A stretch of 64,000 nt of DNA from Candidatus Latescibacterota bacterium (GCA_963667175.2 CAXXXF010000015.1:544001-608000), one strand, 5' to 3'; positions 9,428-63,986 are shown, counted from the stretch's first letter. The notes: generated from the letters alone by a model not told the origin. Numbers and translations: made by a program.

Positions 9428-9942
9428 AATCAACAGGCGGGAAGAAACATGGATGGACCTGCCTGCTGAAGCAGGCGAGGCAGGCAGGATGGGCAGGATA
9501 AAGACGAAAAGGCGCGACAAAGGCACGAGAAAACGAGGAAAAACGAATCGCGCGACAAAGGCACGAGAAAACGAACATCAGAAACTACGAAACACGCGAA
9601 AGAAACGAAAAATCCGAGGCTGAAGTCAGTTGCCACAAGAGGCCTGCCCGCAGCACAGGGCACTGCGCAGGCAGGCGCATAACCACAGTGTTGCACGTCA
9701 GCCTGACACACCAACACGACGACGGCCGACTCGACATTGGACGGATCAGGGTTTTCGTTAAATTCTCCACTCATGTTATTGAAAATCAACCGATTATACG
9801 AAAAAGTCACCGGTTTTCGTGAGTAATCCAGAATACGCTGTGCAATGCGGTTTTTTGTGATTAGGCATTGTCTGGTGCGGCATGCGCGGAAGCGGTAGTA
9901 CCTTGACTTTTGATCTTGATTTTGGCATTATTGTGACGTCGT

Positions 9943-10359
9943 GTGGAGACTTCTGCCAATCGAATGGAGCGCGAAGTGTTGGATTCGGAAGATTGGACGA
10001 TATTTCCATCGGAATTGTATTTGAGGAAGCAAAAGTGGTTTGAGAAGAAGGATAAAGATGTGATCGTAGCCCTGATGACGAATTGGGCGAGAGTTTTTGG
10101 TGCTTTAAACGATGGTGTACCGTTGGGGGAGGTACGCAAGCGGGGCAAGGTTCGTGGTGGTGGAGATCGAGGCCTGCTCGAAATTGATCAGAGAGGTCGA
10201 GGAAATCTGCCGGAAGCTCGTCTTTATGTGTATCCAGATAATGAGACCCGAACCTTGTATTTCATAACGATGGGATATAAGGACGCACAAGATACGGATC
10301 TCAAGGATTGCAAAAGGTATATTGACAAACTTGAGGCCCAGAACCAGAAGAGGAAATGA
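9943..10359 (+). CDS. Putative RelE/HigB-like toxin
   Basis: Basic ~130 aa protein with ARLYVYP...LYFITMGYKDAQDTDLK, immediately upstream of an XRE gene; lower GC than the flanks. Confidence 0.5.
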   Translation: METSANRMEREVLDSEDWTIFPSELYLRKQKWFEKKDKDVIVALMTNWARVFGALNDGVPLGEVRKRGKVRGGGDRGLLEIDQRGRGNLPEARLYVYPDNETRTLYFITMGYKDAQDTDLKDCKRYIDKLEAQNQKRK

Positions 10360-10368
10360 GGAGGCGCC

Positions 10369-11028
10369 ATGTCCAAGCGGTACAGCTCAGTAATGGAAAT
10401 GGTGAGGGACACGACAGAAGATCGTGAGCTTTGCGACGAGTTAGAGAAGGAGATCAGGGATCACGGCTGTGCGTTTTTCTTGCATTCTGTCAGGTGCAAA
10501 GCAAAAATGTCGCAGCGGGCTCTGGCCAAGAAGCTTGGCACTTCTGAGGAGCATATTGATGCTTTGGAGTCCAGTCGAAATTCAGAGTTGACTCTTGAAG
10601 ATGTTGCACGGTATGCTTCCGGACTTGGTCTCAAGTGTGGGATCTCCTTCGAAAGCGAAGATGCTACTTCTGTTGATATGGTTAAGTTTCACACGCTTCA
10701 AGTTTTCCATTATTTGAACCATCTGGCAACTCTTGTAGAAGACGATCACGCTATCAAGCAAGGCGTGGAGAACTTTTTCGAAGAGTATATGTACAACGCG
10801 ATTCTTCTATTTTTGAAGAGTCACAGAGATGTTCAGGGCATTGCTCGCAGTGACGATGAATTGGAGCAGATAACCAGGACCGCTCAAAAAACTGTGATGA
10901 AATTGTCGAAAAACAAAAGAAAAAAGGCGCCGGAACTTGCGATGGTTCTCTATGGTGGAGGGCCGATGGTGAAAATCCCGGCGGCACTATCTTCTGCAAC
11001 CGAACCGGCGACGGCGGGGTCGGGGTAA
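10369..11028 (+). CDS. XRE-family HTH protein (putative antitoxin) with C-terminal extension
   Basis: HTH motif VRCKAKMSQRALAKKLGTSEEHIDALES; strong RBS GAGGAGG. Confidence 0.7.
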   Translation: MSKRYSSVMEMVRDTTEDRELCDELEKEIRDHGCAFFLHSVRCKAKMSQRALAKKLGTSEEHIDALESSRNSELTLEDVARYASGLGLKCGISFESEDATSVDMVKFHTLQVFHYLNHLATLVEDDHAIKQGVENFFEEYMYNAILLFLKSHRDVQGIARSDDELEQITRTAQKTVMKLSKNKRKKAPELAMVLYGGGPMVKIPAALSSATEPATAGSG

Positions 11029-11228
11029 AGGCGCGCCGTGAAGAAAGTCCAGGCGTGTTCCTGGGCTTTTTTATCAAGAACAGGCGTACCATGATACCCT
11101 CAAACGGTCTGTCAAGTTAAGTATATTAGCCCCAACCCAATCCTCACAAGACGTCATCAGGACACACCGCGACTCGCCGTCGTCTTCACCTTATGAAAAT
11201 GGTAGGCGTTTTCTACGGGTTCACCTGA

Positions 11229-11500
11229 AACCTCGACTTCTCAGAATAGGGCGACGCCTTCCCCAATCGACACCTCGGCGCCGAAACCCTCGACCGCCTC
11301 AGACACGGCGCCTATCGCGTCATCCTCGACGGCGACAGCTATCGCTCCCCAAAACCCTTACCACAATCACCCAAAAAACACCTTGGAAAGGAGACTCAAA
11401 AACACTAATTACATGCCCCTTCCGAAACCCCCAAAATCGTCACTTCCAGGTGGCTCCATTATGCCGATCATGGGTGGCCTCATTGGGGCGATCCGTGACA
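11229..11500 (+). mobile_element. istB: IS21-family remnant: istB 3' end and right end
   Basis: Translates NLDFSE*GDAFPNRHLGAETLDRLRHGAYRVILDGDSYR (IstB C-terminus, TGG changed to TAG), followed by two GGTGGC.CCATT/CATT subterminal repeats ending in TGACA at 11500. Confidence 0.8.
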
Positions 11501-11525
11501 GTTACTCCACCGAAAGGAGTTAAGA

Positions 11526-11699
11526 ATGGATCGAGAAATAATCACCTATACGATTGCGGGCGAGCCGGCGAAGGTTGAGTTTGTTGATGACCCTTCAAAG
11601 CCGGGCTGGGACGACATCCCAGCCCTTGAATGGGAAGGATACGAAAGTCCTGTGGTGGAAAAGCCAGGACAACAATCGACGAAAACAAACTCGTCATAA
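11526..11699 (+). CDS. Small acidic hypothetical protein (57 aa; absent from the ORF track)
   Basis: GAAAGGAG RBS 6 nt upstream of the ATG; translates MDREIITYTIAGEPAKVEFVDDPSKPGWDDIPALEWEGYESPVVEKPGQQSTKTNSS. Confidence 0.5.
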   Translation: MDREIITYTIAGEPAKVEFVDDPSKPGWDDIPALEWEGYESPVVEKPGQQSTKTNSS

Positions 11700-11886
11700 G
11701 CATTTTCATTCTCACTTACAGAAGTTCAGTAAATGCAACCACTTAGCGGCGACTGTTTTCCAATCACGTCAAAGGCCCCGGCTACCACGGGGTCTTGTTG
11801 TCTTGCGGGCGTCGTCCTTATATAGAACGTAATACGTACGACACCTCTACAATTGACAGGCAACAGCCGCTGTTTCAAGAAACGAG

Positions 11887-11921
11887 AAAAAAACCCGCGC
11901 CATGTCGGTAGCGGGTTTTTT
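11887..11921. terminator. Bidirectional intrinsic terminator-like hairpin
   Basis: AAAAAAACCCGC-N-GCGGGTTTTTT. Confidence 0.6.
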
Positions 11922-12011
11922 GATTCACCAGGCGGCCAGTGAAAGCAAGTCCTGGCGACCTGTCTCAGGTGGTCGATACAATCAAGCGATTTCTCAAACG
12001 GACATTTGAAA

Positions 12012-12202
12012 GGGTGGAGCAGACATTCCTGTCTGCTCACATCAAACCCAAACCTCACAAGACGTAATCGGGGCACACCTCGACTCGCCTTCCTCTTCAC
12101 CATAGGAAAATGGAAGGCGTTTTGTACGGGTTCACCTGAACCGGGCAGACAAGAATGTCCGCCTGCCTGCCGCGCTCCGCTTGGCGCAGGCAGGCCCCAC
12201 CT
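12012..12202. repeat. REP doublet (REPIN-like): inverted pair of GGGTGGRGCRGACATTCYTGTCTGC, carrying a 33-bp mini-insertion
   Basis: Left REP at 12012-12038, inverted REP at 12143-12202; the same REP recurs at 46652, 52764, 53180, 56015, 58780, 59210, 59922 and 63887. Confidence 0.75.
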
Positions 12203-13453
12203 TCAGACACGCTGATTCATATGCCGGATGATCTCTGTTACGCTACACTCGGGCGCAGTTACGTCAAACGGAACACAGGCCAGCGACAACGCTTTGTCAA
12301 ATTTGAATTCTTCGGTCTTGTCGAACTCCTTCGTCTTCGGATAGACCAGCGCGACCTTTTCGCATTCGTATTTCTTTCCATAAGCGAACATCTGATACAT
12401 ATCGGCCTGGTGAATGTCGTGTTTCAGGTCGCCGTCTTCCGCGTTGATGCGCTTCCATTTCGTGTCGAGGATTAACCGCACGCCGTCGTGACTCGTAAGG
12501 CAGATATCCGGCTTCATACAGAAGACCTTCCTGTCGTCAATATACGCTAAAGGTTCTGACGGTCCTTGCTGTCTCACCTTGAATTGGCGCTGGTGCCGCC
12601 GGAATGACGCCGCTACGAAGTCCTCAAATATCTCCCACATCGGAAAAAGCAACGTCTGGTTGACGTGTCTACCGGAGAACGTGGTCAGGCCGTGATTGAA
12701 GAGAAACAGGCCGACCCACTGCATCACCGCGTCGTAATGTTGAATCGTACGATCCAGACGATGCCGGTCCCAGTCGCTCTGGTGGTTCGTGGAGAGCGGA
12801 ATGTCGGAAAAGCTGACCCGTAACTGGTGGAGCAACTGCTGGTTTCTCGGTTGCCGTGCGTTCCCGGTCAGTTCTTTAATCGTGCTATGGATCAATCGAT
12901 TGGCGGGTCGGTTTGCGCTGAACACGTCATAGCCTGCGTAGAAACGTGCACGGTTAGCCATGTTCTCACGAATGTGTTGGGGAAACTGAATGCGCCCTCG
13001 AAGGCAGGGCAGGTTCTCCTCCACCGGTTGATATTGGCGGGCAAGACCGCGCTGCGTGAGCATCACGAGGTTGTTCAAGAACAGGTGGGCGAACACCTCC
13101 AGCATATTGAAGCGTCGCACGGCGTTGATCTGGCTCTCGTTGAACTGGGCAGCCGATTTGAAACCGCGCCAGGTGCGCAGCATATTGAAAAACACCCGTT
13201 TTGTTTCTTCGATCTCCGCGCCTTCGACGAAATCCACCTTAGGGAGGATTTCCAGTACCGTTCCCTTGCGGGTTTCGATAATCCCGACGTAGTTTCCGGC
13301 AAATAGCCTTCCGTTCCTCACTGTCAGTACCGGTCGGTAGTTGTTCAGCTCATCTGCTTGATTCTCAATGGCGAAATCCTTCAGGCCTTTCAGTTCTTCA
13401 TCGCTGAGACCGGTCAGTTCTTCGTGTTCTCTGACTATCTTGGTGTCGGGCAT
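12203..13453 (-). CDS. mcrC: McrC-family restriction nuclease subunit
   Basis: Motifs NYVGII..LEILPK, LFPMWEIFEDFV, PD-(D/E)xK MKPDI...ILDTKWK and DMYQMFAYG. Confidence 0.92.
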   Translation of the reverse strand: MPDTKIVREHEELTGLSDEELKGLKDFAIENQADELNNYRPVLTVRNGRLFAGNYVGIIETRKGTVLEILPKVDFVEGAEIEETKRVFFNMLRTWRGFKSAAQFNESQINAVRRFNMLEVFAHLFLNNLVMLTQRGLARQYQPVEENLPCLRGRIQFPQHIRENMANRARFYAGYDVFSANRPANRLIHSTIKELTGNARQPRNQQLLHQLRVSFSDIPLSTNHQSDWDRHRLDRTIQHYDAVMQWVGLFLFNHGLTTFSGRHVNQTLLFPMWEIFEDFVAASFRRHQRQFKVRQQGPSEPLAYIDDRKVFCMKPDICLTSHDGVRLILDTKWKRINAEDGDLKHDIHQADMYQMFAYGKKYECEKVALVYPKTKEFDKTEEFKFDKALSLACVPFDVTAPECSVTEIIRHMNQRV

Positions 13454-13455
13454 AT

Positions 13456-15651
13456 TTAAACGTCCTCTTTACTCTCGCCGACATCTGCTTGTACGCTATT
13501 CTTGTAGATCTTGAGATAACTTTCGGGGGCCTCCCACTTGCCGTTATTGAATGGCAATAACTCATAAATCTTTTTCTGTTCATCAACAAACTCGCTCAAG
13601 TCTTCTGGGCAATCCTTTTGTAACTCCCCTGAGATATCTTCAACAAAGGGGTTATGGTTTAGCACCATTTTGATTTTCTTCCAGTCGTCGTAGAAGTATT
13701 CCTGTAGTAACGGGACAATCTTGTTTTTAAAGGCTTTAGCAAGGTCGCCCATTTTCTCGACATTCATGAAGTACGTATGACCGATCTGATGGTCCCGATC
13801 GAGAAGGATACGGATGCGTTTGTTCATAACCTTAAGTAATTCCTGGCAATTCACACCTTCGATATCGTCAGAAACCAGCGTTGGATCGGGCATCATCTCG
13901 ACGAAGTTAAACCGTCGCCGCAATGCCGTATCCAATAGGGCGATGGACCGATCAGCGGTATTCATTGTGCCGATGATGTACAGGTTGTCCGGTACTCCGA
14001 ATTCCTCCTTAGAATACGGGAGCGTGACGGTCGCCGGATCATTGCCGCCAGTACGTTTGGAGTCTTCAATCAGGGTAATCAACTCGCCGAAAATCTTCGC
14101 GATATTGCCGCGGTTGATTTCATCGATGATCAGGACGTACTTCCGCTTACTGTCAGTCCTGGCACTTTCTGCGATTCTCCGGAAGACACCTAGCGATAGC
14201 ACATAGTCAAGATTCCCATCCTCATCAGCGTTTTTGCGAAGGACCGGCCTGATGCCCTCGATAAAGTCCTCGTAGTTATAGCTCTGATGAAACGTTACCA
14301 TCTCGAACTGGCCGCTCTCTTTCAACTCATTAAATCGGCGCATCTTGTCTTCACGCTCTTCCTTGCTTTCCGTTTCGAACTGGTCCACAGGCTTGTTGTC
14401 AATAATCGCCAGCGCATAGTCAACCGTGTTCCACGTCTTGCCCGTTCCGGGGGGTCCGTAAAGGATCTGATTCAAGGGAGGTAGGTGTTTCTTAGGCTCT
14501 GTTCCCGATTCCATGGCATCCTCATCGTCTCCGGACTCATCCTCTGTATGTTCTCCGTTCAATTTCCCCATTAATTCAATCGAAGGCTTGTACTCATCGG
14601 CCCGAACGAAAAGCGAAAGAATTCCCCTTTCGGTCGTCCTGCTAAAGCCAGGTTGTTGTTTCACGTTACCCTTGGGTAGTTTGCATTCCGACTTGTTTAT
14701 CCACAACACATGAATTCTGCCCTTCTCTGTCCATTTGCCATCCCCATGATAATCGTTCTTGTAGACGACACCAATCGCCCGCGCCATTTGTATTCCCGTT
14801 CTAACCAGGACAATGTTCCCCGGGGTGGGTTCAGTCAGATGAGGATACTGGCCCCAGCCCGTAAACACCCAGTTATTTTCCTTAAAACTATCATCACGTT
14901 CTTCCCAATAATCATCGCTGTCAGGATCATTTACGAAAGTGCTGATTTGATAGAATCTATCGCTCACTTTAATTTTCTCGGATCTGTGCAGATACAAGAA
15001 CATATTGATTTCATAGGGCTTGCACCCAGGAAAACCACTGTTCAGCTTCTGAATAAAAGTGTTGTATTCCTTAAAGCCGCCGGGTCCATTGATCTCACGC
15101 TGCAATTCTGAGGGCCGTCTCAGATCCAGTGCCTCCGACAGCTCATCGGTTAAACTGTCCACGGGTTGGAAGTATTCAGGGTTTATCAAAAACAATGTCT
15201 GGGTCAATCTCGTTACTCCAACTCCGCTCAACTTTAACGCGTTTTCGAAATCAGTTGGATCGATCGTCGGTTCATCCTTTACGGCGTCACTAAACAACCG
15301 CCAAAGTAATTCATGACCTGAGTCACTCCTTTCATAAAAGATGTTAAACCGGGACTGGGGAGTGGGAAAGATGTAGTAATCGTAAACTTCCGTATCTGGA
15401 AGCGGCCTTTCTATTCCAAATTCACGGCTTACACTCTCGTACACGGTTTTCAGTTGGCTCGTACCAGCCTTCGAAGCCAAGAAATAAAAGAACGAAAAAG
15501 GATCGATGCCCTGATCTCCGTACCTTAACAGAGGCGGGTTTTCGCCCCACTCGATCTTCTTGGCTCTGTCGATCAGATACCCCTTACCGCCTTCCGAGAT
15601 GTTTTCTGCCAACTCTCGAAACCACAGTACCCAGTCGTAAATCTCTTTCAT
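13456..15651 (-). CDS. mcrB: McrB-family AAA+ GTPase (type IV restriction)
   Basis: Motifs [50 protein letters not shown]; adjacent to mcrC. Confidence 0.93.
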
Positions 15652-15809
15652 CTTGGTATGTCCTTCCCCTCGGAGGATTGGAACGGATAAACGATTAAGA
15701 CAGGATGCCGGCGTTACTCTATCCGCGGGCTACTTGCCAGTGGACCGAGAAGACAACCCTTCTAAGTGATCTGTAAGGTGCTGATCGCCGACGGCTGAGT
15801 GCTGAGAGC

Positions 15810-17587: not shown

Positions 17588-17648
17588 GGCGTTCGTCGCT
17601 GGTATCCTGTTGTTTTCGCATCTTACGACCTGCCAATATATCTCCGGT

Positions 17649-18755: not shown

Positions 18756-18774
18756 AATCCACCCCCTGCGAAAA

Positions 18775-19479: not shown

Positions 19480-19548
19480 CAGCCTCCTCTCGAATTATTA
19501 CCAAGAGCAGTAAATAGTGGACAGTGGCCAGTGGTCAGGAAGAGCAGT

Positions 19549-20309
<761 letters not shown>

Positions 20310-20464
20310 TATCAGCTTTCATTTATTTTCAGGAGCAGCAAATAGTCGACATCCGGATCCAACCAAAGAAGAGTGGGAGGATGTAAACAATACGGTGCTC
20401 CCCGTAATAGACCGCCGAATGTGATGAAACACCGCTGTCTTGTCGTGGTAGAAATGTATTTAAA

Positions 20465-31397: not shown

Positions 31398-31541
31398 ATC
31401 AAAAGCCAAATCAGGCGAAGTCTGCGCCGGGATGTAGCATATTGAGATGGGGCGCGTCGAGGGCAGGACCTGCCTGCAGCGCAGTACGCTGCGCAGGCAG
31501 GTGCCCTCGCTCCCAGGGGTCCTCTCCTCCGCCCCAGGGTC

Positions 31542-33459: not shown

Positions 33460-34302
33460 CGAGAAGCAGCGATCAGCGGTCAGCTTGATTCAAGAGACGA
33501 AGATCAAATTCAAACTAACCTTTTCCCCAAATTCCCTGAAGAACGGGTAGACGTTAGACGGGAGACGGGAGAGGATAGCCCGCGCCCAGGGGAAGACGAT
33601 AGGGCTTGGCGAAAACTACCTGCAATAGGCGCGCGGACCTCTCCCCCCGGCCTGCCTGCGCCGAGTTCTGCTCGGCAGGCAGGCTCCCTCTCCCGGGGGA
33701 GAGGGGGAGCAGAGCGAGGTGTCGTATCTTCGCCGAAATCGAAATTCAGCTCACACGGAGACACAAAGACACAAAGAAAACCAAAGGGCAAGACCCGAGA
33801 CACCGTTGAGGCGGGCAACCACCAGGGTTGCCACGACAAACGAAAATGCAGCGATCAGGAGTCGGTCTTCGGCCGTCAGCTTGAACCATAACAAACCCTT
33901 TGACGTCAGCGCCGGGAGGTAGGCGCAGACCTCTCCCCCCGGCCTGCCTGCGCCGAGTTCTGCTCGGCAGGCAGGCCGGGGGGAGAGGGGGTGAAAAGCG
34001 GAGACCGCGAAGGGATCACAGTTCCCCCTTCCCCCCGGGAAGGGGGAAAGGGGGTAGGTCGGTGGGACGGTGAGGGGTAAAGGCAGTTGTCAGTTAAATT
34101 CGGTTGGCGAAGGGTACACGTGATGTCATCGGTCGTTGTCTGCGTCGCGATGTGGATTAACCAGAAGGGACGCGTCGAGGGCAGGACCTGCCTGCAGCGC
34201 AGTACGCTGCGCAGGCAGGTGCCCTCGCTCCCAGGGAGACGTCTTCCTTCTTCCTTTTTCTTTCTTCGTTCTTCCTTCATCTTTTTCCTTCTTCCTTTTT
34301 TT
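33460..34302. repeat. Dense composite repeat region, including three 33-bp mini-insertions and a pyrimidine heptamer tract
   Basis: Inverted copy of the 2357-2750 modules; CCTGCCTGC...GCAGGCAGG at 33651, 33943 and 34187; CTTCCTT-type tract at 34243-34302. Confidence 0.75.
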
Positions 34303-34315
34303 GAAAGGAGTCGAC

Positions 34316-35278
34316 ATGACAGATCTAAAGGCCGCGGTTATCGGCTGCGGCGGGCACGCCCAGTCGCACCTGCAGATGATCGCGAACGAACCGAGGCTTC
34401 GGCTGGCGGGCATCGCGGAACTCGATGAGGAGCGGTTGCGCGGGAATCGGGCCGAATGGGCGCCTGAGCAGGCCTTTTCGGACTACCGCCAGATGCTCGA
34501 CGCGTGCAGTCCGGACGTGGTGTACGTGGTCACGAATCCCGGACACCTTCTGCCCATTGTTCTGGAATGCCTGAACAGGGGCATCCACACTTCGGTGGAG
34601 AAGTCTCCCGGAATGAACGTGGACGAGACCTCCCAGATGGCGCGGGCCGCCCGGCAGAGTACGGGCAAGGCCATCGTATCGTTCAACCGTCGATACTATC
34701 CTCACGTGCTGGCCGTCCGGCGGCGCATCCAGGCGGGCGGGGGCGCGGTACACGTCGCGGCCACGTACAACAAGCCGTTATCCCGGTTTAAGGACGCAAC
34801 GCCCGATCCGGTGATCTGCGACGCCATCCACCACGTGGACCTGATTCGCTGGTTGGCGGGTTCCGGCCCGGAAGAAGCAGCGATACCGGTGGAAGTGCGG
34901 GGAATGGTGCAGGACGGCGCGCGCCCCGTGTGCCATCGCCACAACGCCGTGGTGCGCTTCGACACGGGCGCGTTCGGCGTCCTGATGTGCCACTACGGCG
35001 TGGGCTATCGCATCCAGAGGGCGGAAGTACACGCGGAGGACCTGTCGGCCTATCTCGATCTGACTCGGGCGCCGCAGGTGGAGGGATATGAGCGGGGCGA
35101 GCCTTTTTTGGTGGAAGACGAGGAAATCGAGGCCGTGGGCGGCCCCGGCTTCAACGAGACCGCCCACTTCACCGATTGCATTCTGGAAGACCGCACGCCA
35201 TGGTCAACCCTGGACGACGCGGTGCAGACCATGCGCCTGTGCGAGGCCATCCGCGCAGGTCACGTGGGGACGTTGTGA
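34316..35278 (+). CDS. Gfo/Idh/MocA-family oxidoreductase
   Basis: AAGGAG RBS; motifs VIGCGGHA, VEKSPG, FNRRY, DAIHHVD. Confidence 0.88.
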   Translation: MTDLKAAVIGCGGHAQSHLQMIANEPRLRLAGIAELDEERLRGNRAEWAPEQAFSDYRQMLDACSPDVVYVVTNPGHLLPIVLECLNRGIHTSVEKSPGMNVDETSQMARAARQSTGKAIVSFNRRYYPHVLAVRRRIQAGGGAVHVAATYNKPLSRFKDATPDPVICDAIHHVDLIRWLAGSGPEEAAIPVEVRGMVQDGARPVCHRHNAVVRFDTGAFGVLMCHYGVGYRIQRAEVHAEDLSAYLDLTRAPQVEGYERGEPFLVEDEEIEAVGGPGFNETAHFTDCILEDRTPWSTLDDAVQTMRLCEAIRAGHVGTL

Positions 35279-37721: not shown

Positions 37722-38058
37722 TCTGAATCCTTAAAAGTGCGTAACCAGCACAATCTTCCCGTCGCACATAGCGAGGCTTCGCGTCGTTCAGCCGAAACGA
37801 GATAGGTGGAAGTAAAGGCGCGAGCCCGCTTGAAGGTCGAATCACTCCCCCCTTGAGGGGGAGTCGCCTGCCTGCGTCCGCAGGACAGGCAGGCAGAAGC
37901 AGAGCCGGTGCTCTGAGCCTGTGGTCCCAATGCTTGTCGAAGGGTCAATGGATATTGACGCACCGGCGAAGGTGGTGGGGGGATTGCAACGCCTTGCCGT
38001 GAGCAAAAAGCACGGATAAACATGCGCGCGGTTTGCGTAGCAGTCTTACCGAAGGGAC

Positions 38059-43632: not shown

Positions 43633-44075
43633 GGAACCGCTACCTCTAAATTGGTTATCTCATGAGTTCTCGCTGTAAGCGTTCTACGATAGGACGTCCA
43701 CGCAAAATACAGTTATATTTGGTCGCGATGCTGGCATAAGGTACAGCGTTGACGTCCCCCCACCGCATCAGCCGTCGCCTGCCTGTGCGCTGCACGCAGA
43801 CAGGCCGGCCCTTCGACACCCCTTCGACAAGCTCAGGGTACTGGCTCAGGAATCGGCTCGGCTTCTGCCTGCCTGCCGCCTGCCTGCGCCGCTGCGCTTC
43901 CCGCGGCAGGCAGGCGCTCCGCTTGGATCAGGCAGGCGACTCCCCCTCAAGGGGGGAGTGATTAAACCGTTGCAAGGGCGTGCGCGTTCACTTGCGCCTA
44001 TTTGGTTGCGGCTGAGCATCGCGAAGCCGTGGCAGGTCGTACATGTGTAAGATACCTGCGTCTTCATCCTACAGA

Positions 44076-46560: not shown

Positions 46561-46941
46561 GGAACCTGTGCCTTTAAAGGAGGGAGTCGCGAATCAGCCT
46601 TTTCGATCCGCGCACACCCGGCTGTCGGTGCGTTCAGGAAGTGTGTGTGAAGGTAGGGCCTGCCTGCAGCGCCTGTCTGCGTGCGTGCACGCACAAGCAG
46701 GCAGTTCGCTGCGCAGGCAGGCAGACATTCCTGTCTGCCCTTAGCAGCACGTTGAAAAAGCCCATCCGGGCTACGTCCCGCCCTTGCGATCGAAATACTG
46801 CGTTTCGCGTCCTCGAGTCGGTGGCTTTGGCTCCGAAGGTTGAACGCTTATGTGAATATCGCTCCTTCAAGGGTTCGACTACGCTGGAATGTGGATGGTC
46901 TCCTTGAAGAACGAAGACGCGAGTCTGAACGGCTTTGCGGT

Positions 46942-49485: not shown

Positions 49486-49857
49486 TTCTGTTGGGCGACT
49501 CACCGTCTCGGGGACGGATATCGGACAATTGGCCGAACGCGGGCGGGCGGTTCGAGAACCGCCCCTACGTGTATCGGAAAACCGTCAAATTGGTTTCGTC
49601 CTGTAGCCCGCTGTCATTGTATCCGTAGGGGCCTGCCTGCTGAAAGGAGCAAGGCAGGTAACTCACCGGCCCTATCTCCAGGACGGGTGGCGAATATTCC
49701 TGGAACAAATCGACTCGGAAAACGATCAAATCCTTGAAACCGATATTCTTACACCAAAAAGGGGGTGGTCATCGTGCCACAGATCAAACGACGAAGACGC
49801 CGCCCGAGGCTCATATTCGTCAAAGGTCAAAGGCGACCGAAGGGTTAATTCGTCCCA

Positions 49858-52489: not shown

Positions 52490-53221
52490 GAGCCTGCCGA
52501 CTTTGCACAGAATGACAACTTGGGCGATGAACATCCGCGAATCCCATCCGTTTCCCCTCGCCCAGCATGTCATCCTGAGGAGGCCGTCCTGCCTGGCTGC
52601 GTTTCATCGGCAGGCAGGCCGACGAAGGATCTACTGCGGCATCGCTTGATGCCCGAGCGTGTTCTGTCATTCGCGGGGAGCAGGATGGCGGCACGTCCGT
52701 CGCGGAAGGCCGGGCGCCTGCCTGCCGCGGGAAGCGAAGCGGCGCAGGCAGGCGGCAGGCAGGCGGACATTCCTGTCTGCCCACGTCAATGTCGTTCCTG
52801 TCGGGATCGACACAGATCGAGGATTCCGCCAGGCAACAAAGCCTCCGCGCAGATGGGCCGGTGAACGGGTCCGCTGCTCGTCAAGCCGAGGTGACGGGAG
52901 ATTCTTCGCTGCGCTCAGAATGACATCCTGGGCGATGAACATCCGCGAAACACATCCGTTACACCCTCGCCCAACATGTCATCCTGAGGAGGCCGGTATG
53001 CCTGCCAGAGAATCATCGGCAGGCAGGCTGACGAAGGATCTACTGCAGCATAGGTACACACCAGTGTGATTTGTACGTGTCAATACCTGTCAGGCGGCAC
53101 GTCCGTCGCGGAAGGCCGGGCGACCACGAGGGACGCCCCTACAAAGGCCATGGTGGAGGCGATGAGAAATCCGCTCTGAGGGTGGGGCCTGCCTGCGCCA
53201 AGCGGAGCGCCTGTCTGCCCT
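52490..53221. repeat. Two tandem ~410-bp composite units
   Basis: GTCATCCTGAGGAGGCC...GACGAAGGATCTACTGC at 52569 and 52978; AGATTCTTCGCTGCGCTCAGAATGAC. Confidence 0.85.
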
Positions 53222-53224
53222 TTA

Positions 53225-55582: not shown

Positions 55583-55659
55583 CGTCGAATTCTCGCGGAT
55601 TGATCCCTTCACATCAACCTGGCGCGGCTCTGCTGTGCCCGGCTGCGACCGAAGCTTTC

Positions 55660-56040
55660 AAGCCAACGAAGCCTCCGGGCATATGGGCCGGTGAAGGCGT
55701 CCGCTGCACGTCAAACCGAGGAGACGGGAGATTCTTCGCTTCGCTCAGAATGACATGTTTTGCACTCGACATCCGCGAAATGTTTCGTTCAGTCCTGTGC
55801 CAAACCTGTCATCCTGAGGAAGCCGCCCTGCCTGCCAGAGAATCATCGGCAGGCAGGCTGACGAAGGATCTACTGCGGCATCGCTTGAACCCCGACCGTC
55901 TTTTGTCATTCGCCGTGGCCTGGCAGGCGGCACGTTTGCGCCCACACTGTCAGGCTGAGGCGGCGCGTGTGTTGATGCGCCCGCCCAAACTGCCATGTTG
56001 ACGAATCCAATGCGAGGGCGGACATTCCTGTCTGCCGACC
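55660..56040. repeat. One composite unit of the ~410-430-bp family
   Basis: Same modules as 52490-53221 and 58570-59950. Confidence 0.85.
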
Positions 56041-56041
56041 A

Positions 56042-58425: not shown

Positions 58426-58439
58426 GTAGGGTCACCTCC

Positions 58440-59950
58440 AGCGTTTCTTTGACGCGGCTTCGCTCAGAACGAATGGGCGCCCGCCCAAACTGTCATGCTA
58501 AGAAATCCGTTGTGAGGGTGGGGCCTGCCTCGACGTCGCTCACAAAAACAGGCCGGCCGATCTCCAAACGTGTCATCCTGAGGAGGCCGCCCTGTCTGCC
58601 AGAGATTCATCGGCAGGCAGGCCGACGAAGGATCTACTGCAGCATCGCTCGATACCCGACCGTCTTTTTTCATTCGCCGCGGGCTGACAGGCGGCACGTT
58701 TGCGCCTACATGGCCAGGCGGCGCAAGCGCGTGTGATGATGCAACCGCCCAGACTGTCATGTTTAGAATCCGTAGTGAAGGCGGGGCGGACATTCCTGTC
58801 TGCCCACGGCAATGGCATTCTGTCGGCATGGACGCAGATTGACGAGGCCGCCAGGCCAACAATGCCTCCGCGCATATGGGCCGGTGAAGGCTTGCGCTGC
58901 ATGTCAACCCGAATAGACGGGAGATTCTTCGCTCCGCTCAGAATGACATGTCTTGCAATAACGCTTGCCGAGACGTCTCCGTCACACCCTCGCCCATCAT
59001 GTCATCCTGAGGAAGCCGTCCTGCCTGCTGGCGGTTCACCGGCAGGCTGGCTGACGAAGGATCTACTGCGGCATCGCTTGATACCCGAGCGTCTTCTGTC
59101 ATTCGCCGTGACGTGGAAGGCGGCACGTCTGCGCCTACACGGCCAGGCGGAGCAAACGCGTGTGATAATGCACCCGCCCAGACTGTCATGTTTAGAATTC
59201 CGATGTGAGGGTGGGGCAGACATTCCTGTCTGCCCAAGTCAATGTCATTCTGTCGGCATGGACGTAGACTGAGGAAACCGCCAATGAAACGAAGCGTCCG
59301 CGCATATGGGCCGGTGAAGGCTTGCGCTGCATGTCAACCCGAATAGACGGGAGATTCTTCGCTGCGCTCAGAATGACATGTCTTGCAATGGATATGAGCG
59401 AAATGTTTCGGTCATACGTTTGCCAGGTCCATCACCCGCTCGGCCTGTGCCCCTCCCTGAGCCTGCGGTTCCTGAGCCGTTCCCTGAGCCTGTCGAAGGG
59501 CCGGCGAAGGGATTGCGAACGGTTTATGGGCTGCCTGAATGCGGGCATTTCGAAAAGCTCAATGACCACTTTTTGATAGGCCACTTCGACAAGCTCAGCG
59601 CTGGCAGAACGGGCAATGACCACGTTTCGACAGGGGCTTTCGGCTCCGCTCAGAATGACTGTTTGACTGACCTCCGACTGCGAGACGTTTCCGTCATACG
59701 TTCGCCCAAGCATGTCATCCTGAGGAAGCCGCCTTGCCTGCCAGCGGTTCATCGGCAGGCTGGCTGACGAAGGATCTACTGCGGCATCGCTTGATACCCG
59801 AGCGTCTTCTGTCATTCGCCGTGACGTGGAAGGCGGCACGTCTGCGCCTGCACGGCCAGGCGGAGCAAACGCGTGTGATAATGCACCCGCCCAAACTATC
59901 ATGCTTAGAAATCCGGTGCGAGGGTGGGGCGGACATTCCTGTCTGCCCGC
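58440..59950. repeat. Tandem array of composite ~429-bp units
   Basis: GTCATCCTGAGG anchors at 58572, 59001 and 59714; the units at 59001 and 59714 are nearly identical over about 230 bp. Confidence 0.88.
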
Positions 59951-61725
59951 TCTTACTCATACCGTAGCGCGTCGACAGGATTCGTGCACGCAGTTCTCCA
60001 AGCGCGATGACTCACAGTGGTCAACGCAATAAAAAACGCCAGAAAACCACCCATGACAAAAGGCCATACATCCAGATCAATGCGATAGGCAAAATTCCGT
60101 AACCACGCGTTCATTGCATAATATGCAACTGGCCATGCAATGAGATTTGCAAGTCCGACAAGCAGGACGAATTCTCTGGACATTAGCAGAACGACTGTGG
60201 AAACAGACGCGCCGAGGACCTTTCTGATGCCGATCTCCTTGACGCGCCGTTGCGCGCTGAATGAAGCCAGGCCAAACAGCCCAAGACTTGCGACAAGTAT
60301 GGCGAGGAGTGAGAACAGACCAAACAGCCTGCCAATCTGTTGTTCTTCACGATGCAGTTTCTCGTAATCATCGTCCAGGAAGAAATAATCGAACGGTGTA
60401 TTCGGCGCAATATCACCCCACTGCGCCTTTAGAAAACTGAGTGTACCAGCGATATCATCCGATCGAATCCTGATAACGAAATACTCAAACCACGTTTCCT
60501 GCGTCGTGATAATCAGAGGTTCGATTTCATGATGCAAAGACTGATAGTGAAAATCCTTCACAACGCCGACAACCTTTCCTCTGTATTCTACCTTTATTTC
60601 GTTGCCCTGTGGCCATATTTTCTCCAAATCCTTACCTACACACGAACTCCAACCGAATTTTCGCATGGCAGCTTCATTGAGGATAAGTTCGCCACGGTCA
60701 TCACGCGGATTTTTTTCCACAAAGCCTCTGCCTTCTACGAGTTCAAGCCCAAGTGTGGAGACGAATTCGTTGTCAACCACCAATTTGTTCATCCCAAAGC
60801 CATCCTCAGATCCGCCATCACGAGGAGATCGAAAAAGACCGGCGGGAAATGGTCGACCAGGCAGACTTGAAGTCGTCGAAGTGCTCAATACATCTGCATA
60901 CTCCGACAATCTCGATTTATATCGCTTTGACGCCTCAATGCCGGGATACGGCAATACTACGACCTGTTCCTTATTGAAACCCAGTTCCTTGTTTCTGATG
61001 TAATCCGACTGATCGTAAACAACAATCGTTCCGACAATTAGAATTACCGAAATGGCAAATTGAAACACGACAAGAGTTTTACGTGAACTGGATTTCTGCA
61101 ACCCAATCTTCACTGTGCTCTTGAAGACCTCTGCTGGCCGAAGAGCTGAGAGAATCAAGGCAGGATAAATCCCGGAGAGTAAGCCTGAAAACATCGCCAT
61201 CCCTATCAGGACAGACAGCACATCCAAACCTCCCGCGTATTCCAATTCCAACTCGCGGGAGATAAGGGCGTTAAACAAAGGAAGCGAGACCTCAACAATT
61301 ACAACAGCCAAGAATGACGAAAACAACGCCAACAAGATCGATTCGCCCATAAACTGGCGGAAAAGCTGTGAGCCGTCGGCGCCTACCACTCTTCGCATAC
61401 TCACTTCTTTTGACCGCGCCGTTGACCGTGCCGTTGACAGATTCGTAAAATTGATGCAAGCCAATACCAACACAATGAAGGCAATGATCAGGAAGAGATA
61501 AACATGGCGAATATCGCCGTTGGGACTCATTTCCCACTCCAAACTGGAATTCAAATGAATGTCAGCCAGGGGTTGCAGGAAGTACTTGATGTGTAAACCT
61601 GCAGCTTTGGCTCGTTTCCCTATGGGGAATGTACCTATCTTAGTTGAAATAGAAGAGGCTCCGATGTAAATTGGATACAGTAGTCCCGAGTAGAATACTG
61701 TATCCTCATACGAAAGGAGCCTGTA

Positions 61726-63042
61726 ATGAGCAAGGTATCATCGAAGTCTCGTGAAGTCAAGTTGAACACGGAAGGTGTTGTGAGTTCCAGGGCGGTCTCC
61801 GCAGGTATGCTGGAGGATGTTGACGTCCGTGTGGCCTTGATCCAGTCGCTGATCCCTCTGGGTCTGGCCGCCGTGGAAGAAATCTTGCAGAATGAGGTCG
61901 CCGCGTTGACGGGCAAGAGATACAGTCGTAAAGCAGACAAGGCCCCGAATCGCCGGTGGGGCGTGCAACGTGGATCGGTGTATCTATCGGACCAGAAAGT
62001 GCCCGTGGCGGTACCGAGGGTGCGCGACGTGGAAGCCAATGAGGAGGTGCCTCTACAGGCGTATCGCCGCTTGCAGCGCCCCAGAGACATGGACGAAGGG
62101 TTGCTGCTTCGCGTTCTGGGCGGCCTTGCCACGCGTTCTTACGCCAGTTGCGCAGAGGCGGTACCCGAGGCGTTTGGCTTGTCTTCGTCGACGGTCTCGA
62201 AGCGGTTCATAAAGACATCAGCGGCCAAGCTGAGGCAGTTTCAAGAACGGTCGCTTGCCGGCTATGACCTGGTGGGGCTGTTTATGGATGGCAAGACCTT
62301 TGCCGATCAGCAAATGATCATCGCCCTTGGCGTGACAATCGACGGGGACAAGGTCCCGCTGGGGTTCGTGCAGGCCGCCAGTGAAAATGAGCGCGTGTGC
62401 CGGCAGTTTGTCAATTCGCTCATCGATCGCGGACTGCAGTATCACCAGGGGCTGCTGTGCCTCATCGACGGCTCGAAGGGGTTGCGGACCGCGCTGACCA
62501 AGGCCCTATCCGGATACGTCGCCATTCAACGCTGCCAGCCTGCCTGCCGAGCATCCGGCGCAGGCAGGTGGCACAAACGGGAAAACGTGATCGCCTATCT
62601 GCCCAAATCACAGCAGGATGAGGTCAGAAAGGCCCTCCACGATGCGTACGACAAGGAGACCTACAACGAAGCCAAAGCCGCGCTACAGGCCCTCAAACCC
62701 TCCCTGGCGCTGAGGAACGCATCGGCACTGAACAGCCTCGAGGAAGGGCTCGAAGAAACCCTCACCCTCCATCGGCTGGGGCTCATGCCACAGCTCAAAC
62801 AATCGTTCCGCACCACCAACTGTATCGAATCCCTCAACGCCATGGTCGCTCAGCGCACACGAAATGTAAAACGATGGAACAACTCCGATCAGCGATATCG
62901 GTGGTTGGCAGCCGCGCTGTTAGACATCGAGCCACGACTGCGGAGAATCAAAGGATACCGCTTTCTTCCTATACTCAGACTTGCCCTACAAAAACACCTC
63001 AACCTCGATCACGACGCGCAAGAGGCTTTCGCCGCCGACTAA
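61726..63042 (+). CDS. IS256/Mutator-family DDE transposase with a 10-aa in-frame insertion
   Basis: Motifs VPRVRD, FMDG, LIDGSKGL, QRCQ[PACRASGAGR]WHKREN, RTTNCIESLN. Confidence 0.92.
   Translation: MSKVSSKSREVKLNTEGVVSSRAVSAGMLEDVDVRVALIQSLIPLGLAAVEEILQNEVAALTGKRYSRKADKAPNRRWGVQRGSVYLSDQKVPVAVPRVRDVEANEEVPLQAYRRLQRPRDMDEGLLLRVLGGLATRSYASCAEAVPEAFGLSSSTVSKRFIKTSAAKLRQFQERSLAGYDLVGLFMDGKTFADQQMIIALGVTIDGDKVPLGFVQAASENERVCRQFVNSLIDRGLQYHQGLLCLIDGSKGLRTALTKALSGYVAIQRCQPACRASGAGRWHKRENVIAYLPKSQQDEVRKALHDAYDKETYNEAKAALQALKPSLALRNASALNSLEEGLEETLTLHRLGLMPQLKQSFRTTNCIESLNAMVAQRTRNVKRWNNSDQRYRWLAAALLDIEPRLRRIKGYRFLPILRLALQKHLNLDHDAQEAFAAD
62539..62568. mobile_element. 30-bp palindromic mini-insertion inside the transposase gene
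   Basis: CCTGCCTGCCGAGCATCCGGCGCAGGCAGG; removing it restores QRCQWHK. Confidence 0.85.
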
Positions 63043-63986
63043 ACGCCTCTCCCGTTTCAACTAAAAATAGTACTTGCCCTTCCCTATGTGTCTCTCGGTG
63101 AAATCAGGTAACTTCGTTTCTAACTCGTCAGCTGCACGGGCGTCTTGCAAGAGCAGATAGGTATAATAATCGTGGGCAATCCATGCCTTACTCTTAATGG
63201 GCGATGCCAGAAAATCGAACGTCATATGGGTGTTGTGGGTGTGATCCTCCAAAATACCGGTTATCTTATACGCTTCACCCTCCATGGTAAGCGTCTGCCC
63301 TATCGGATCCCGGTCGCCGAAATATTTCCACGCCATCTCTTGTGTGAGAACAATGGAATAAGGCTCCAGCAGTGCAGTTTGAGGTTCTCCTTTGCCCAGT
63401 GGAAAATCAAAGACGTGGAAAACATTCGCGTCGGTAAACAAGACATTACTTTCGTAGAAATGATCCTGCTGGTTTCGAACAAGCGTCTTTTCATCGTCTT
63501 TCGAAAAACGGACTGCATCTATCACCTCCGCATAGTCTTCGACAAGTGCAGGTCCCGTTGAAAATGGCGTCATGGCAATATGACGCATGACCCCTGCGAC
63601 TTTTGCGGTAGTAGCAAGCCGATAAATGCGGTGTGCGTTTTCATGGTGTCTGTCATAGCTCAGTTCATCCTGAACGTAGAGGAGAATGAGCATGCAGCAG
63701 GCCATGCCGATTGCAAGGCCAAGAATATTGATGGCCGAAAACGTCTTGTTCCTCATCAGGTTGCGAATGGCGACTTTCAGATAGTTCGCGACCACGTAGG
63801 GTCACCTCCTGTGTCTTCTCTGGCGCGGCTTCGCTCGGAATGAATGGGCCTTCGCCCAAACCGGCATGTTGAGAAATCCAATGCGAGGGTGGGGCCTGCC
63901 TGCGCGAAGCGGAGCGCCTGCCTGCCGCGGCAAGCGAAGCGGCGCAGGCAGGCGGCAGGCAGGCAGACATTCCTGTCTGCCCTTTA

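Follow-up and report, generated by a model that had tools for sequence, protein, structure and literature searches.

The question raised by a 64,000-nucleotide stretch of a Candidatus Latescibacterota genome (GCA_963667175.2, CAXXXF010000015.1:544001-608000; "the window" below) is what the hairpins of 19–36 bases are with which it is peppered, whether they move, and by what means. They sit in other repeats, insertion sequences and restriction genes, and they are a genuine repeat family; the motif CCTGCCTGC matches 38 times in the window, versus a mean of 0.50 (maximum 5) in 100 shuffles. An earlier sequence-only reading of this DNA had listed copies whose coordinates and sequences are as described on re-reading; these and others are collected in Table 1. 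In the whole genome there are 336 paired copies of 136 sequence types.

Table 1. Hairpin copies and empty target sites in the window (^ marks the junction).
Feature	Position	Context
31-nt variant hairpin CCTGCCTGC..GCAGGCAGG	9458..9488	within 36-bp segment missing in relative G009 (orthologous site empty)
33-nt hairpin, variant left arm CCTGCCCGC	9643..9675	intergenic
33-nt hairpin	12162..12194	8 nt past the stop codon of a McrBC-family ORF (12203-13453, minus strand)
33-nt hairpin	31469..31501	inside a different REP, in its loop GAGGGCAGGA^TGCCCTC; flanking genes convergent
33-nt hairpin	33651..33683	centre of palindromic repeat CTCTCCCCCCGG^CCCC
33-nt hairpin	33943..33975	subfamily and target type as for 33651 copy
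33-nt hairpin	34187..34219	REP loop GAGGGCAGGA^TGCCCTC, within over-extended 5' part of ORF 34136-35278
27-nt hairpin	37867..37893	inside larger repeat (..GAGGGGGAGTCG^CAGAAGC..)
27-nt hairpin, T-variant ends CCTGCCTGT..CAGACAGG	43778..43804	
Nested composite 33+36	43868..43936	36-mer (43879-43914) after base 11 of 33-mer
Nested composite 33+30	46659..46721	30-mer (46672-46701) after base 13 of 33-mer
Degenerate 27-nt copy, right arm decayed	49632..49658	
31-nt hairpin	52588..52618	integral conserved part of repeated unit upstream of MacB/FtsX permease paralogues
36-mer (52717-52752) plus right 11 nt of partly deleted outer 33-mer	52717..52763	at ..GGGCG^CGGACATT
Shortened copy, left 22 nt of 33-mer	53188..53217	fused directly to CCTGTCTGCC target hairpin
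30-nt hairpin	62539..62568	in-frame (10 codons) in IS256-family transposase ORF 61726-63042, plus strand; GCCAG^TGGCA, no duplication
Nested composite 33+36	63895..63963	36-mer (63917-63952) inside 33-mer; at GGGTGGGG^CAGACATT
Hairpin-forming target site GGGTGGGG^CAGACATTCCTGTCTGCC, empty	59205..59240	
Empty target site CTCTCCCCCCGG^CCCCTC	2510..2535	reverse strand

The canonical unit is 33 nt long and consists of a 9-bp outer stem of conserved sequence (CCTGCCTGC/GCAGGCAGG), a 13-nt inner hairpin and a conserved GC that is unpaired and present on one side only. The inner hairpin varies in sequence, with compensatory changes, and regular 33-mers fold as a 9-bp stem, a 2-nt bulge and an inner stem with z of about -3 to -4.8. 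Of 39 oriented copies that come from other phyla and differ in their flanks, all 39 have the G of the bulge and 38 the C. Derivation from this unit is the best explanation for the 27-, 30- and 36-nt forms and also for stumps of 19–20 nt, which are the two 9-bp arms alone (64/165 strict copies) and are found at the same target positions as 33-mers. In each of the hairpin-rich genomes listed, 33 nt is the commonest length.

The sequence-only reading held that every cleanly bounded copy has a length that is a multiple of three, and the genome-wide pattern scan and tabulation that it proposed bear this out only in part. Strict-end copies of at least 22 nt mostly obey it (94/101, namely 75 of 33 nt, 14 of 36, 3 of 30, and one each of 27 and 24), but it is not a rule for all copies: 164 of the 336 have other lengths, and the share of such multiples among the 250 intergenic copies (128; by our own ORF calls, which cover 81.6% of the genome) is the same as among all copies. 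In the window itself the copy at 9458, measured between its own symmetric ends, has 31 nt and lies within a 36-bp indel relative to G009, and those in the 430-bp units (52588, 55827 and 58591) are likewise 31 nt. The accompanying claim that copies of suitable length lie in-frame within intact genes is correct for the IS256 transposase (62539), for this genome's own hsdR and hsdM/S genes, and for HsdR genes of other phyla. The hairpin at 34187 is most likely upstream of the true start of its ORF, because the Pfam domain begins at amino acid 65 and the orthologous alignment at 34265.

We regard it as highly probable that these hairpins are a mobile REP-like family, and comparison of filled and empty sites, including those in IS256 and hsdR, supports their description as non-autonomous mobile elements. 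Among eight copies of the IS256-family element, five lack the 30-mer and have flanks 99.8–100% identical on both sides to those of the filled copy at 62539; of further copies, one at 94.6% is empty and one at 92.6% carries the identical 30-mer at the same site. The hsdR gene of this genome has a 21-nt in-frame insert at GACGA^CGGCAG that is missing from the loci of 11 relatives, two of them at 93% protein identity. Within the window, both proposed pairs of empty and filled sites are real: GGGTGGGG^CAGACATT holds a copy at 46659 and 63895 but none near 59215 (the entire 46659 composite is placed at GGTAGGG^CAGACATT, and empty sites resembling that at 59205..59240 lie near 56027, 58795 and 59938), and CCCCGG^CCCC holds one at 33651 and 33943 but none at ~2520 (reverse strand). 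The site of the 31469 copy holds another subfamily in G009 and is an unfilled REP in G010, and the 36-bp composite around the 9458 copy recurs at other places in G009 and G012. Genome-wide, 36 flank classes have an empty paralogous site, one and the same hairpin can be found in as many as 7 different flank classes, and nesting of hairpin within hairpin is common. Hairpin copy number ranges from 0 to 109 among relatives, while the control, the pattern reversed, has no match in any of the 41 genomes.

Empty alleles in relatives, suggested earlier as a check, were thus found for hsdR (11 relatives), for the 9458 copy (G009) and, as the unfilled REP, for the 31469 copy (G010), but not for the hairpins of the 430-bp units, which had been counted as insertions. 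The latter are conserved structural parts that hold the same position in the 430-bp-type units of G009 and G012, with compensatory changes in the arms of the 31-nt hairpins; the 52588 copy has sisters at 55827-55857 and 58591-58621 and decayed copies near 53019 and 59020.

What is inserted, precisely, is a single hairpin, not a doublet, with no duplication beyond a 1–2-nt ambiguity. The earlier description of the junction as purine^pyrimidine, mostly G^C, and free of target duplication holds genome-wide (27/36 flank classes are G^C); the other 9 include A^T sites that leave no room for a duplication, and at the hsdR site at most 1 nt could be duplicated. The flanks of the 39 oriented cross-phylum copies have R at -1 and Y at +1 and almost no further information. 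Very often the hairpins have entered other palindromes, in the loop or the stem (other REPs, copies of the same family, and a 190-bp MITE of this genome, which they colonise as a secondary parasite), and sometimes in-frame positions in genes. The REP GAGGGCA..TGCCCTC is filled in 9 of 39 copies, at a single loop position, by at least 4 hairpin types, and 4/4 orientable types lie in one relative orientation. Neighbouring hairpins are mostly far apart (219/318 spacings exceed 400 bp), the close ones being nested copies or lying within one MITE. Orientation relative to the sign of the local GC skew, a crude proxy in a draft genome, has no bias (23/23 and 20/13).

The family extends well beyond this lineage. 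Many phyla have the identical 33-mer, frequently in-frame within restriction-modification genes, and identical stems occur in about 20 phyla. One HsdR family has been struck recurrently in at least 3 different loops, in different phyla. A RAYT gene lies within the examined stretch at only 2 of 109 cross-phylum loci, and there GTAG REPs stand beside it.

The sequence-only reading placed the responsible enzyme outside the window, and indeed no plausible candidate is encoded there. The genome encodes several Y1/RAYT proteins, but no cognate enzyme was found among them. All these genes carry other REPs; in particular, palindromes other than our hairpins flank the Y1 genes C3:192478, C7:59525, C7:62893, C8:17533 and C12:166077, each of which has a different cognate REP. 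Close orthologues of the C3 RAYT (at least 74% identity) are present in 6 genomes, all with at least 11 hairpins. On the other hand, G015, with 109 hairpins, lacks a close C3-type orthologue, and G009, with 105, lacks a C7-type match. In the proposed comparison with HUH genes across genomes, the number of Y1_Tnp matches does not go with that of hairpins (there are 32 such matches in G017 and 75 in G038, and both have 0 hairpins).

Among described elements the closest are the REP/BIME/REPIN sequences, which are also GC-rich imperfect palindromes of 20–40 nt with high copy number, mostly extragenic, patchy among relatives, and marked by a conserved irregularity of the stem (here the 2-nt GC bulge). 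According to Di Nocera (2013), REPs have occasional in-frame intragenic copies and insert into other palindromes. According to Corneloup (2021), the bulge of the E. coli REP is required for cleavage by RAYT, and GTAG is required by the RAYTs studied. Classical REP-RAYT pairs are present in this genome too. The hairpins described here differ in having no GTAG or CGTC tag (in the 39 oriented copies and the window flanks), in flanking no RAYT gene found, and in having an identical stem across many phyla, not in one lineage. Of the features of a REPtron they have the short repeated palindrome and the bulge but lack the tag and the adjacent RAYT. Nor do they behave as REPINs: Bertels and Rainey (2011) describe the doublets as mobile and singlets as immobile, whereas here single hairpins distinguish filled from empty sites and spacings are wide.

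Other small elements are more distant. The cyanobacterial SDR of Elhai and colleagues are reportedly mobile repeats of 21–27 nt, some hairpin-forming, nested in each other and in larger repeats, with no target duplication and no known enzyme; compared by description only, they behave similarly, but their sequences and phylum are different. Rickettsia palindromic elements are about 100–150 bp and confined to Rickettsia, so that our 19–36-nt hairpins, mostly intergenic in this genome, differ from them in size and lineage. Both have in-frame copies in genes that stay open, as Di Nocera (2013) mentions for the Rickettsia elements. Bacterial MITEs (Correia/NEMIS, RUP, ERIC) are, like our family, non-autonomous, intergenic and sometimes intragenic, with inverted-repeat ends, but according to Di Nocera (2013) they are 70–300 bp and make duplications through DDE transposases. 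The hairpins are several times smaller and make no duplication, and their length and the A^T sites do not fit MITEs as generally defined (terminal inverted repeats and duplication, about 50–500 bp). The earlier statement that they are far smaller than MITEs or Rickettsia elements is therefore right, but "undescribed mobile system" was too strong: the general kind is that of REP-like palindromic repeats, and only for the tag-less family itself, and the mobility of its single hairpins, did we find no description in the literature searched. Our verdict is that they are a tag-less form of the REP-like kind, mobile as single hairpins.

How they move we infer as follows. A folded single-stranded hairpin would be recognised through its conserved stem and GC bulge, and a trans-acting HUH/Y1 enzyme, RAYT- or IS200/IS605-like, would cut and rejoin it, a route expected to give no duplication and a fixed orientation at a given target. 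In-frame copies with lengths in multiples of three would persist in genes, especially horizontally mobile restriction-modification genes, which could ferry the family between phyla. The working model is the "peel and paste" of IS200/IS605 elements (IS608, ISDra2), in which hairpins are read as folded single strands, excision and insertion are precise, no target duplication is made and no terminal inverted repeats are required. Those elements, unlike ours, encode TnpA, insert 3' of a defined 4–5-nt target and have a lagging-strand-template bias; the hairpins have no gene and only an R^Y preference, and the orientation bias that an IS608-like mechanism predicts is not seen with the crude skew proxy. 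The absence of duplication, the conservation of hairpin and bulge, the Y1/RAYT proteins of this genome and the co-occurrence of the C3 orthologue argue for an HUH-type mechanism; the missing tag, the lack of a Y1 gene flanked by the family, the unrelated Y1_Tnp counts, the unbiased orientation and the nearly uninformative flanks weaken it. Taken whole, with the enzyme class included, the statement that these are REP-like hairpins moved in trans by an HUH/Y1 enzyme seems to us about evenly balanced between right and wrong.

Rather unlikely, though the strongest competitor, is that the hairpins are mobile through another kind of enzyme. A tyrosine, serine or IS110-type recombinase might handle the folded hairpins in the way that an integron integrase handles attC, or snap-back oligonucleotides might be captured at the tips of palindromes by host repair or replication. 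The lack of a cognate RAYT, of the GTAG tag and of a replication-strand bias all suit it, as do the frequent targets at the tips of other hairpins, and a stem and bulge conserved in many phyla would be more in keeping with a widely conserved protein than with RAYTs specific to single lineages. Against this, recombinases normally require a core site common to both partners, while the targets here share only R^Y, and no candidate gene can be named, the enzyme search in this genome having covered Y1/RAYT genes.

It is improbable that the hairpins are ultra-short MITEs of a DDE transposase. On that view CTGCCTGC..GCAGGCAG, bounded by 8-bp terminal inverted repeats, is the element, and the G..C on either side of it is a 2-bp GC target duplication. 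The element ends are perfect inverted repeats, and the G^C junctions formally allow a 1–2-bp duplication of G, C or GC, but the remaining 9 flank classes and hsdR do not fit, and both the asymmetric conserved bulge and the compensatory inner stem suggest that what is recognised is a folded strand. A full-length element with these ends was not found in a crude search that was too permissive to be informative, and no MITE is known to come near a size as small as 19–36 bp.

Still less probable is that they are structural motifs (terminators, mRNA stabilisers or protein-binding sites) spread passively with larger repeats and by gene conversion. Amplification of carriers does account for many copies (26 of a 28-mer lie in only 3 flank classes), several copies are just 3' of genes (e.g. 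12162), and the hairpins of the 430-bp units stay in place. But the 62539 insert sits in a young IS copy, and 4 nt from the junction its flank departs from that of the one other copy that is filled, so that a conversion tract is not favoured; the hsdR insert is lineage-specific and one hairpin can occupy 7 unrelated flank classes. In addition, no T-tract as in intrinsic terminators is present in the window flanks, and the shares of hairpins in convergent, divergent and co-directional intergenic regions are near background. Scarcely credible is that the hairpins are excision footprints of a larger element, its two ends joined, with the 19-/20-mers as the pure end-to-end joint. The arms-only make-up of these stumps and the target positions that they share with 33-mers would suit it, but no larger element with such ends was seen, the 33-mer is the modal class and has a structured, covarying interior, and the stumps are more simply internal deletions of the inner hairpin in situ.

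The reading of these hairpins as mobile and REP-like may have a wider form, which we offer tentatively and think possible though not probable: that the 33-nt hairpin is a pan-bacterial "nano-transposon" of an undescribed kind, a single folded strand defined by its 9-bp stem and GC bulge, moved by an enzyme other than a classical RAYT, and kept in restriction-modification genes. If this were true, in-frame copies in these horizontally mobile genes would be the long-term reservoir of the family, which would explain why forms of 27, 30, 33 and 36 nt are in excess and why identical stems range over so many phyla. A burst into intergenic palindromes such as that in this genome would be a secondary event.

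Counted together with its complement, the sequence CCTGCCTGC has 38 occurrences in the 64-kb window, against a mean of 0.50 and a maximum of 5 in 100 dinucleotide-preserving shuffles; the hairpin family is real and lies well above chance. Pairing of the arms gives 16 simple hairpins plus nested composites in the window, where all of the coordinates assigned to copies by the sequence-only reading hold, and 336 hairpins of 136 sequence types in the 5.52-Mb genome. In the fold of the regular 33-mers, an outer stem of 9 bp is followed by a bulge of 2 nt and by an inner stem of 4-6 bp that closes a 5-nt loop (folding z-scores about -3.2 to -4.8); the outer stem is conserved in sequence, and the inner hairpin varies among subfamilies through compensatory changes. 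Rfam at gathering thresholds gave no match at the hairpins, its sole matches being to a group II intron (see table).

With ORFs called by a codon log-odds model (4014 ORFs, 81.6% of the genome), 250 of the 336 hairpins are intergenic, 9 lie across an ORF end, 49 are at most 150 nt from where the longest possible ORF starts (many such starts are over-extended) and 28 lie deep in an ORF, several among these being low-scoring ORFs or chance arm pairs. The only clearly genic hairpin in the window is that at 62539, and the copy at 12162 lies outside a McrBC-family ORF, 8 nt past its stop codon; the McrBC-type region has a G+C content of about 49-51%, below that of the rest of the window. Sixty placed 33-mers occupy 13 convergent, 9 divergent and 38 co-directional intergenic positions, close to background proportions.

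These hairpins are mobile, and their precise insertion is directly evidenced. The IS256-family element of the window (Pfam Transposase_mut) has seven further copies in the genome, five of them 99.8-100% identical to it to either side of the insert and a sixth 94.6% identical; all six lack exactly the 30 nt at 62539-62568, and a 92.6% copy carries the identical 30-mer at the identical site. The two alignment blocks at this site overlap by one base, so target duplication is absent there. When the 35-nt left flank of each copy was joined to its 35-nt right flank and searched against the genome, 189 filled sites had an uninterrupted empty counterpart, and these reduce to 36 flank classes (a few being variants of each other) with junctions G^C in 27, G^T in 2, G^A in 1, G^G in 2, C^C in 1, A^C in 1 and A^T in 2. 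Members also insert into one another: the 36-mer at 43879 follows base 11 of a 33-mer, the 30-mer at 46672 follows base 13 of another, and the composite at 63895 has the same nested layout. Identical hairpins are found in unrelated flank classes (seven for a 19-mer, six for a 20-mer and four for each of four different 33-mers).

Orthologous intergenic sites in related genomes are only about 85-93% identical and are crowded with other repeats, with clean calls only at 9458 (empty in the relative G009) and 31469 (filled in G009), so a comparison of hsdR was used in their place. The HsdR protein of this genome reads FIVFDDD[LSARQAG]GSG where 11 loci in relatives, two of them at 93% protein identity, read FIVFDDD/GSG; in the DNA, 21 nt have been added at GACGA^CGGCAG, with a 1-nt ambiguity. 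Presence or absence was also sought in sequencing runs, the best of which give short, low-depth Logan contigs that end at repeats. The IS256 copies, the flank classes and the hsdR insert bear out the earlier proposal of mobile, duplication-free insertion, and the empty orthologous alleles that it called for in relatives exist at 9458 in G009 and in the 11 hsdR loci.

The list of targets is biased, because within one genome only repeated DNA can reveal an empty copy. It is nevertheless striking, and includes a MITE-like repeat (about 190 bp, inverted ends CAGCCCGTTGAAAAAGTC, dozens of copies) that is entered at three fixed positions, the palindrome CTCTCCCCCCGG^CCCC, entered at its centre, the stems of fellow family members, and the loop of another REP, GAGGGCAGGA^TGCCCTC. 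The last is filled in 9 of its 39 copies, always at the same position and by at least four hairpin types, and all four of the types that can be oriented share one relative orientation; it is the REP that flanks the genome's best RAYT (REP-associated HUH transposase) gene. In a Lentisphaerae MAG, hairpins likewise sit at the apex of GTAG-type REPs adjoining a RAYT. The CTCTCCCCCCGG/CCGGGGGGAGAG palindromes form a second family that is abundant in the genome. One copy of a 569-aa ORF that lacks a Pfam match, is present about 11 times in the genome and is probably an insertion sequence contains a 30-nt and a 54-nt hairpin insert, both in-frame.

Features of the window and of other contigs (C3 to C18) of the same genome; positions with no contig name are window coordinates
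Feature	Location	Strand	Remarks
RAYT gene	C3:192478-193110		NCBIfam REP_Tyr_transpos 100.6 bits (cut-off 80); palindrome CGAGGGCAGGGATGCCCTCG, doublets
RAYT-like ORFs L002, L003	C7:59525-60130, C7:62893-63498		own palindrome in-frame; palindrome GTAGGGGCAGGTTTSAAACCTGCCCCTAC
RAYT-like ORF	C6:490202-490681		own palindrome in-frame
RAYT-like ORF	C8:17533-18174		own palindrome in-frame; palindrome GTAGGGGCGACCGGCCGGTCGCCCCTAC
Y1/RAYT-like gene	C12		palindrome GTAGCACAAACTG..
hsdR	C14:321354-324563		all five HsdR Pfam domains
569-aa ORF	C4:188390-190099		in-frame hairpin inserts
MITE-like repeat	C18:76280-76470		empty
MITE-like repeat	C3:521600-521890		four hairpins
CTCTCCCCCCGG/CCGGGGGGAGAG palindromes	33620-33720, 33930-34010		
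McrBC-type restriction genes	12203-15651	minus	Pfam McrBC component 12203-13453; 731-aa ORF upstream
Group II intron RNA domains	19618-20283	minus	Rfam group-II-D1D4-4 100.7 bits, Intron_gpII 40.9 bits
MacB_PCD/FtsX permease array	41290-63795 and beyond	minus	at least six paralogous genes, ~780 aa
Permease paralogue split by IS256 element	59953-61554, 63061-63795		
31-nt hairpins of 430-bp units	52588, 55827, 58591		arms ATCCTGAGGAGGCCG and CGACGAAGGATCT

The sequence-only reading had held that every copy is a multiple of three in length. In that strict form the claim fails: the lengths of the 336 copies fall 172, 126 and 38 into the classes 0, 1 and 2 modulo 3 (72, 41 and 23 for the 136 types), and the suggested comparison of coding with intergenic copies gives an intergenic share (128 of 250) equal to the overall one. 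The exceptions are stumps of 19 and 20 nt (64 of 165 strict-end copies), a subfamily of 32 copies that are 28 nt long and have T-variant ends, and the 31-nt hairpins. A softer bias survives as a real excess among full-size strict-end copies, since 94 of the 101 that are at least 22 nt long are multiples of three, although copies are not independent and 33 nt is the master length. Among 77 places listed in the relative G015, 53 hairpins are of 33 nt, 16 are of 24, 27, 30 or 36 nt and 8 have other lengths (four being 19-mers); six different 30-mers there look like separate 3-nt loop deletions of different 33-mers, which makes a frame-related filter on hairpin length plausible. The stumps sit at the same targets as the 33-mers and are best read as internal deletions. 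Avoidance of stop codons was considered and dropped: when the inner 15 nt are simply shuffled, the 33-mers look stop-depleted (24 of 25 types where 18.5 are expected, and 73 of 88 where 63.4 are, values that none of 500 shuffles attains), but with the hairpin preserved in the shuffles the difference is not significant (9 of 9 where 6.8 are expected, attained in 35 of 500 shuffles, and 28 of 31 where 26.3 are, attained in 116 of 500).

The copies in the 430-bp units, repeated between the permease genes, had been read as insertions, and this we revise. Their 31-nt hairpins keep their position in the paralogous units and in the orthologous units of the relatives G009 and G012, with compensatory changes in the arms (for example CCAGCCTGCC..GGCAGGCTGG), and belong to the unit itself. 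The units also contain a target hairpin, GGCAGACATTCCTGTCTGCC.

Among 41 related genomes, the strict pattern has 165 copies in this genome, between 0 and 105 in each of 14 congeneric genomes, and 109 and 99 in two other genera of the family, with almost none in the sister family; a reversed control pattern has no copy in any of the 41. Exactly matching subfamilies are shared by different genera. Searched with one genome per species, the 33-nt pattern occurs in at least 109 stretches from about 20 phyla (by record title). Some of these matches are surely due to chance, as their cores are not palindromic, but the inner hairpin is present in 76 of 104 cross-phylum copies with distinct flanks among the matches listed. 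The consensus of 39 listed copies with an inner stem of at least 3 bp is CCTGCCTGC-CG-N9-CG-GC-GCAGGCAGG, with a nearly invariant GC bulge. Several of the cross-phylum loci have a G+C content of 36-45%, and these loci are therefore not mis-binned Latescibacterota DNA.

Among the cross-phylum matches listed, 61 of 115 are in a stop-free frame of at least 200 codons, 34 of the 61 in the phase that reads L-P-A..Q-A-G. Scanned with Pfam and PADLOC, these 61 frames include three HsdR, one or two HsdM, one HsdS, two large N6_N4 methylases, two DUF1156 methylases and one PLD-SNF2 protein (among the matches listed), as well as housekeeping genes such as TsaD and polyprenyl synthases, in which true starts may differ and the intragenic position is a candidate one. 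In this genome two of six examined high-scoring ORFs with deep hairpins are type I genes, namely HsdR and an N6_Mtase-Methylase_S fusion in which 33 nt are inserted at residue 416. When an HsdR from a Nitrospira MAG is aligned with the EcoR124I HsdR of known structure, a gap of 10 residues falls exactly on the hairpin peptide. Among the 120 homologues closest to the Nitrospira protein (84-100% identity over 181 residues), 63 are empty (FPEEKGD/RHP), 27 have a single 11-residue LPA..QAG insert at GD^RH, two have LPAGQAG, one has LPAGKAG and one a double insert; 14 (for example P0030 and P0049) have an insert from another palindrome family, PSP..PSP..GRGG, in this loop, and the remaining 13 comprise 9 other variants and 4 with no match to the anchor pattern. 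The PSP..PSP..GRGG insert, in-frame in the HsdR loop that the CCTGCCTGC hairpin also enters, is a look-alike of the CTCTCCCCCCGG/CCGGGGGGAGAG palindromes. Within the family of this genome, insertion has also occurred in two other HsdR loops, one after FIVFDDD (this genome and the relative G016) and one after NQFTVTEN (G016 and a Trueperaceae MAG). The enrichment in restriction-modification genes is clear, and its cause could be loop tolerance, hitch-hiking on horizontally mobile genes or something mechanistic. A RAYT-like gene of the C7 type lies 12 bp to 3 kb from the hsdR orthologue in six relatives (G013, G015, G007, G008, G004 and G016), in most cases immediately downstream and in the same orientation; the hsdR of the present genome lacks such a neighbour.

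Very small, nested, mobile repeats have reportedly been described in cyanobacteria by Elhai and co-workers, and RAYTs are known to cleave DNA in vitro. This genome has a RAYT gene on C3, two Y1/RAYT-like genes on C7 with a fragment on C6, and one each on C8 and C12, and each of these has its own flanking palindrome, none of which is the CCTGCCTGC hairpin. Six genomes, each with at least 11 hairpins, encode a close orthologue of the C3 protein; G015, with 109 hairpins, lacks it, and G009, with 105, lacks a C7-type match. Pfam Y1_Tnp counts do not track hairpin load across the 41 genomes; the co-occurring HUH gene that the earlier reading suggested seeking did not emerge. A search of the genome for genes with hairpins on both sides found six, none of them repeated, and a scan for a long element bounded by split half-sites gave 839 pairs and was uninformative, as the degenerate 8-mers match by chance. 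From the behaviour of the hairpins (no duplication, features of folded-strand recognition, the conserved bulge and the fixed orientation at a hot spot), and by analogy with RAYTs and IS608 in the part of Corneloup 2021 consulted, we infer that a HUH-type single-strand mechanism may move them, although they lack the GTAG tag and no replication-strand bias was found with local GC skew, a crude proxy on a draft genome. Several RAYT-like ORFs of this genome (see table) carry their own cognate GTAG palindrome, which also flanks the gene, in-frame between the HUH and Tyr regions; GTAGGGGCAGGTTTCAAACCTGCCCCTAC, for instance, is translated as VGAGLKPAPT. In G007, G009, G011 and G016, open frames that span ~1200-1440 codons and lie 1-14 kb from the C3-type orthologue include a RAYT-like segment with 43-46% identity to the C3 RAYT; no such frame was found in the present genome.

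The hairpins are a tag-less variant of the REP-like palindromic repeats, with the single hairpin as the mobile unit. In the main text of Di Nocera et al. 2013, most REPs are sorted into GTAG- and CGTC-tagged superfamilies, and in-frame intragenic REPs, notably in DNA repair genes, and REPs within other palindromes are described; the present family has neither tag, and CCTGCC, GGCAGG and GCAGGC are missing from that main text (the figures and supplements, with consensus sequences and intragenic REPs, lie outside the search). Unlike the REPINs, for which the text of Bertels and Rainey 2011 gives doublets as the mobile unit and singlets as inert, here a single hairpin moves. Papers containing both hairpin 9-mers, among the matches listed, have them in primer or eukaryotic contexts and describe no bacterial repeat; the text searched, figures and supplements apart, contains no description of the CCTGCCTGC family, and a literature search on in-frame palindromes inserted in hsdR gave no relevant result.

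The spread of REP-like repeats is still poorly understood, and the present family supplies clean before-and-after pairs for single hairpins of 21-36 nt, including those in a young IS copy and in the conserved hsdR. Together with the target preference, the hot spots and the nesting, these pairs make the mechanism directly testable with oligonucleotides and the genome's few Y1 proteins. Protein loops of 7-12 residues of the form LPA..QAG are mobile DNA, a practical warning for annotation. The family is unexpectedly found in-frame in restriction-modification genes across phyla; with the same in-frame hairpin recurring there, such inserts may modulate restriction or may just ride these genes between hosts.
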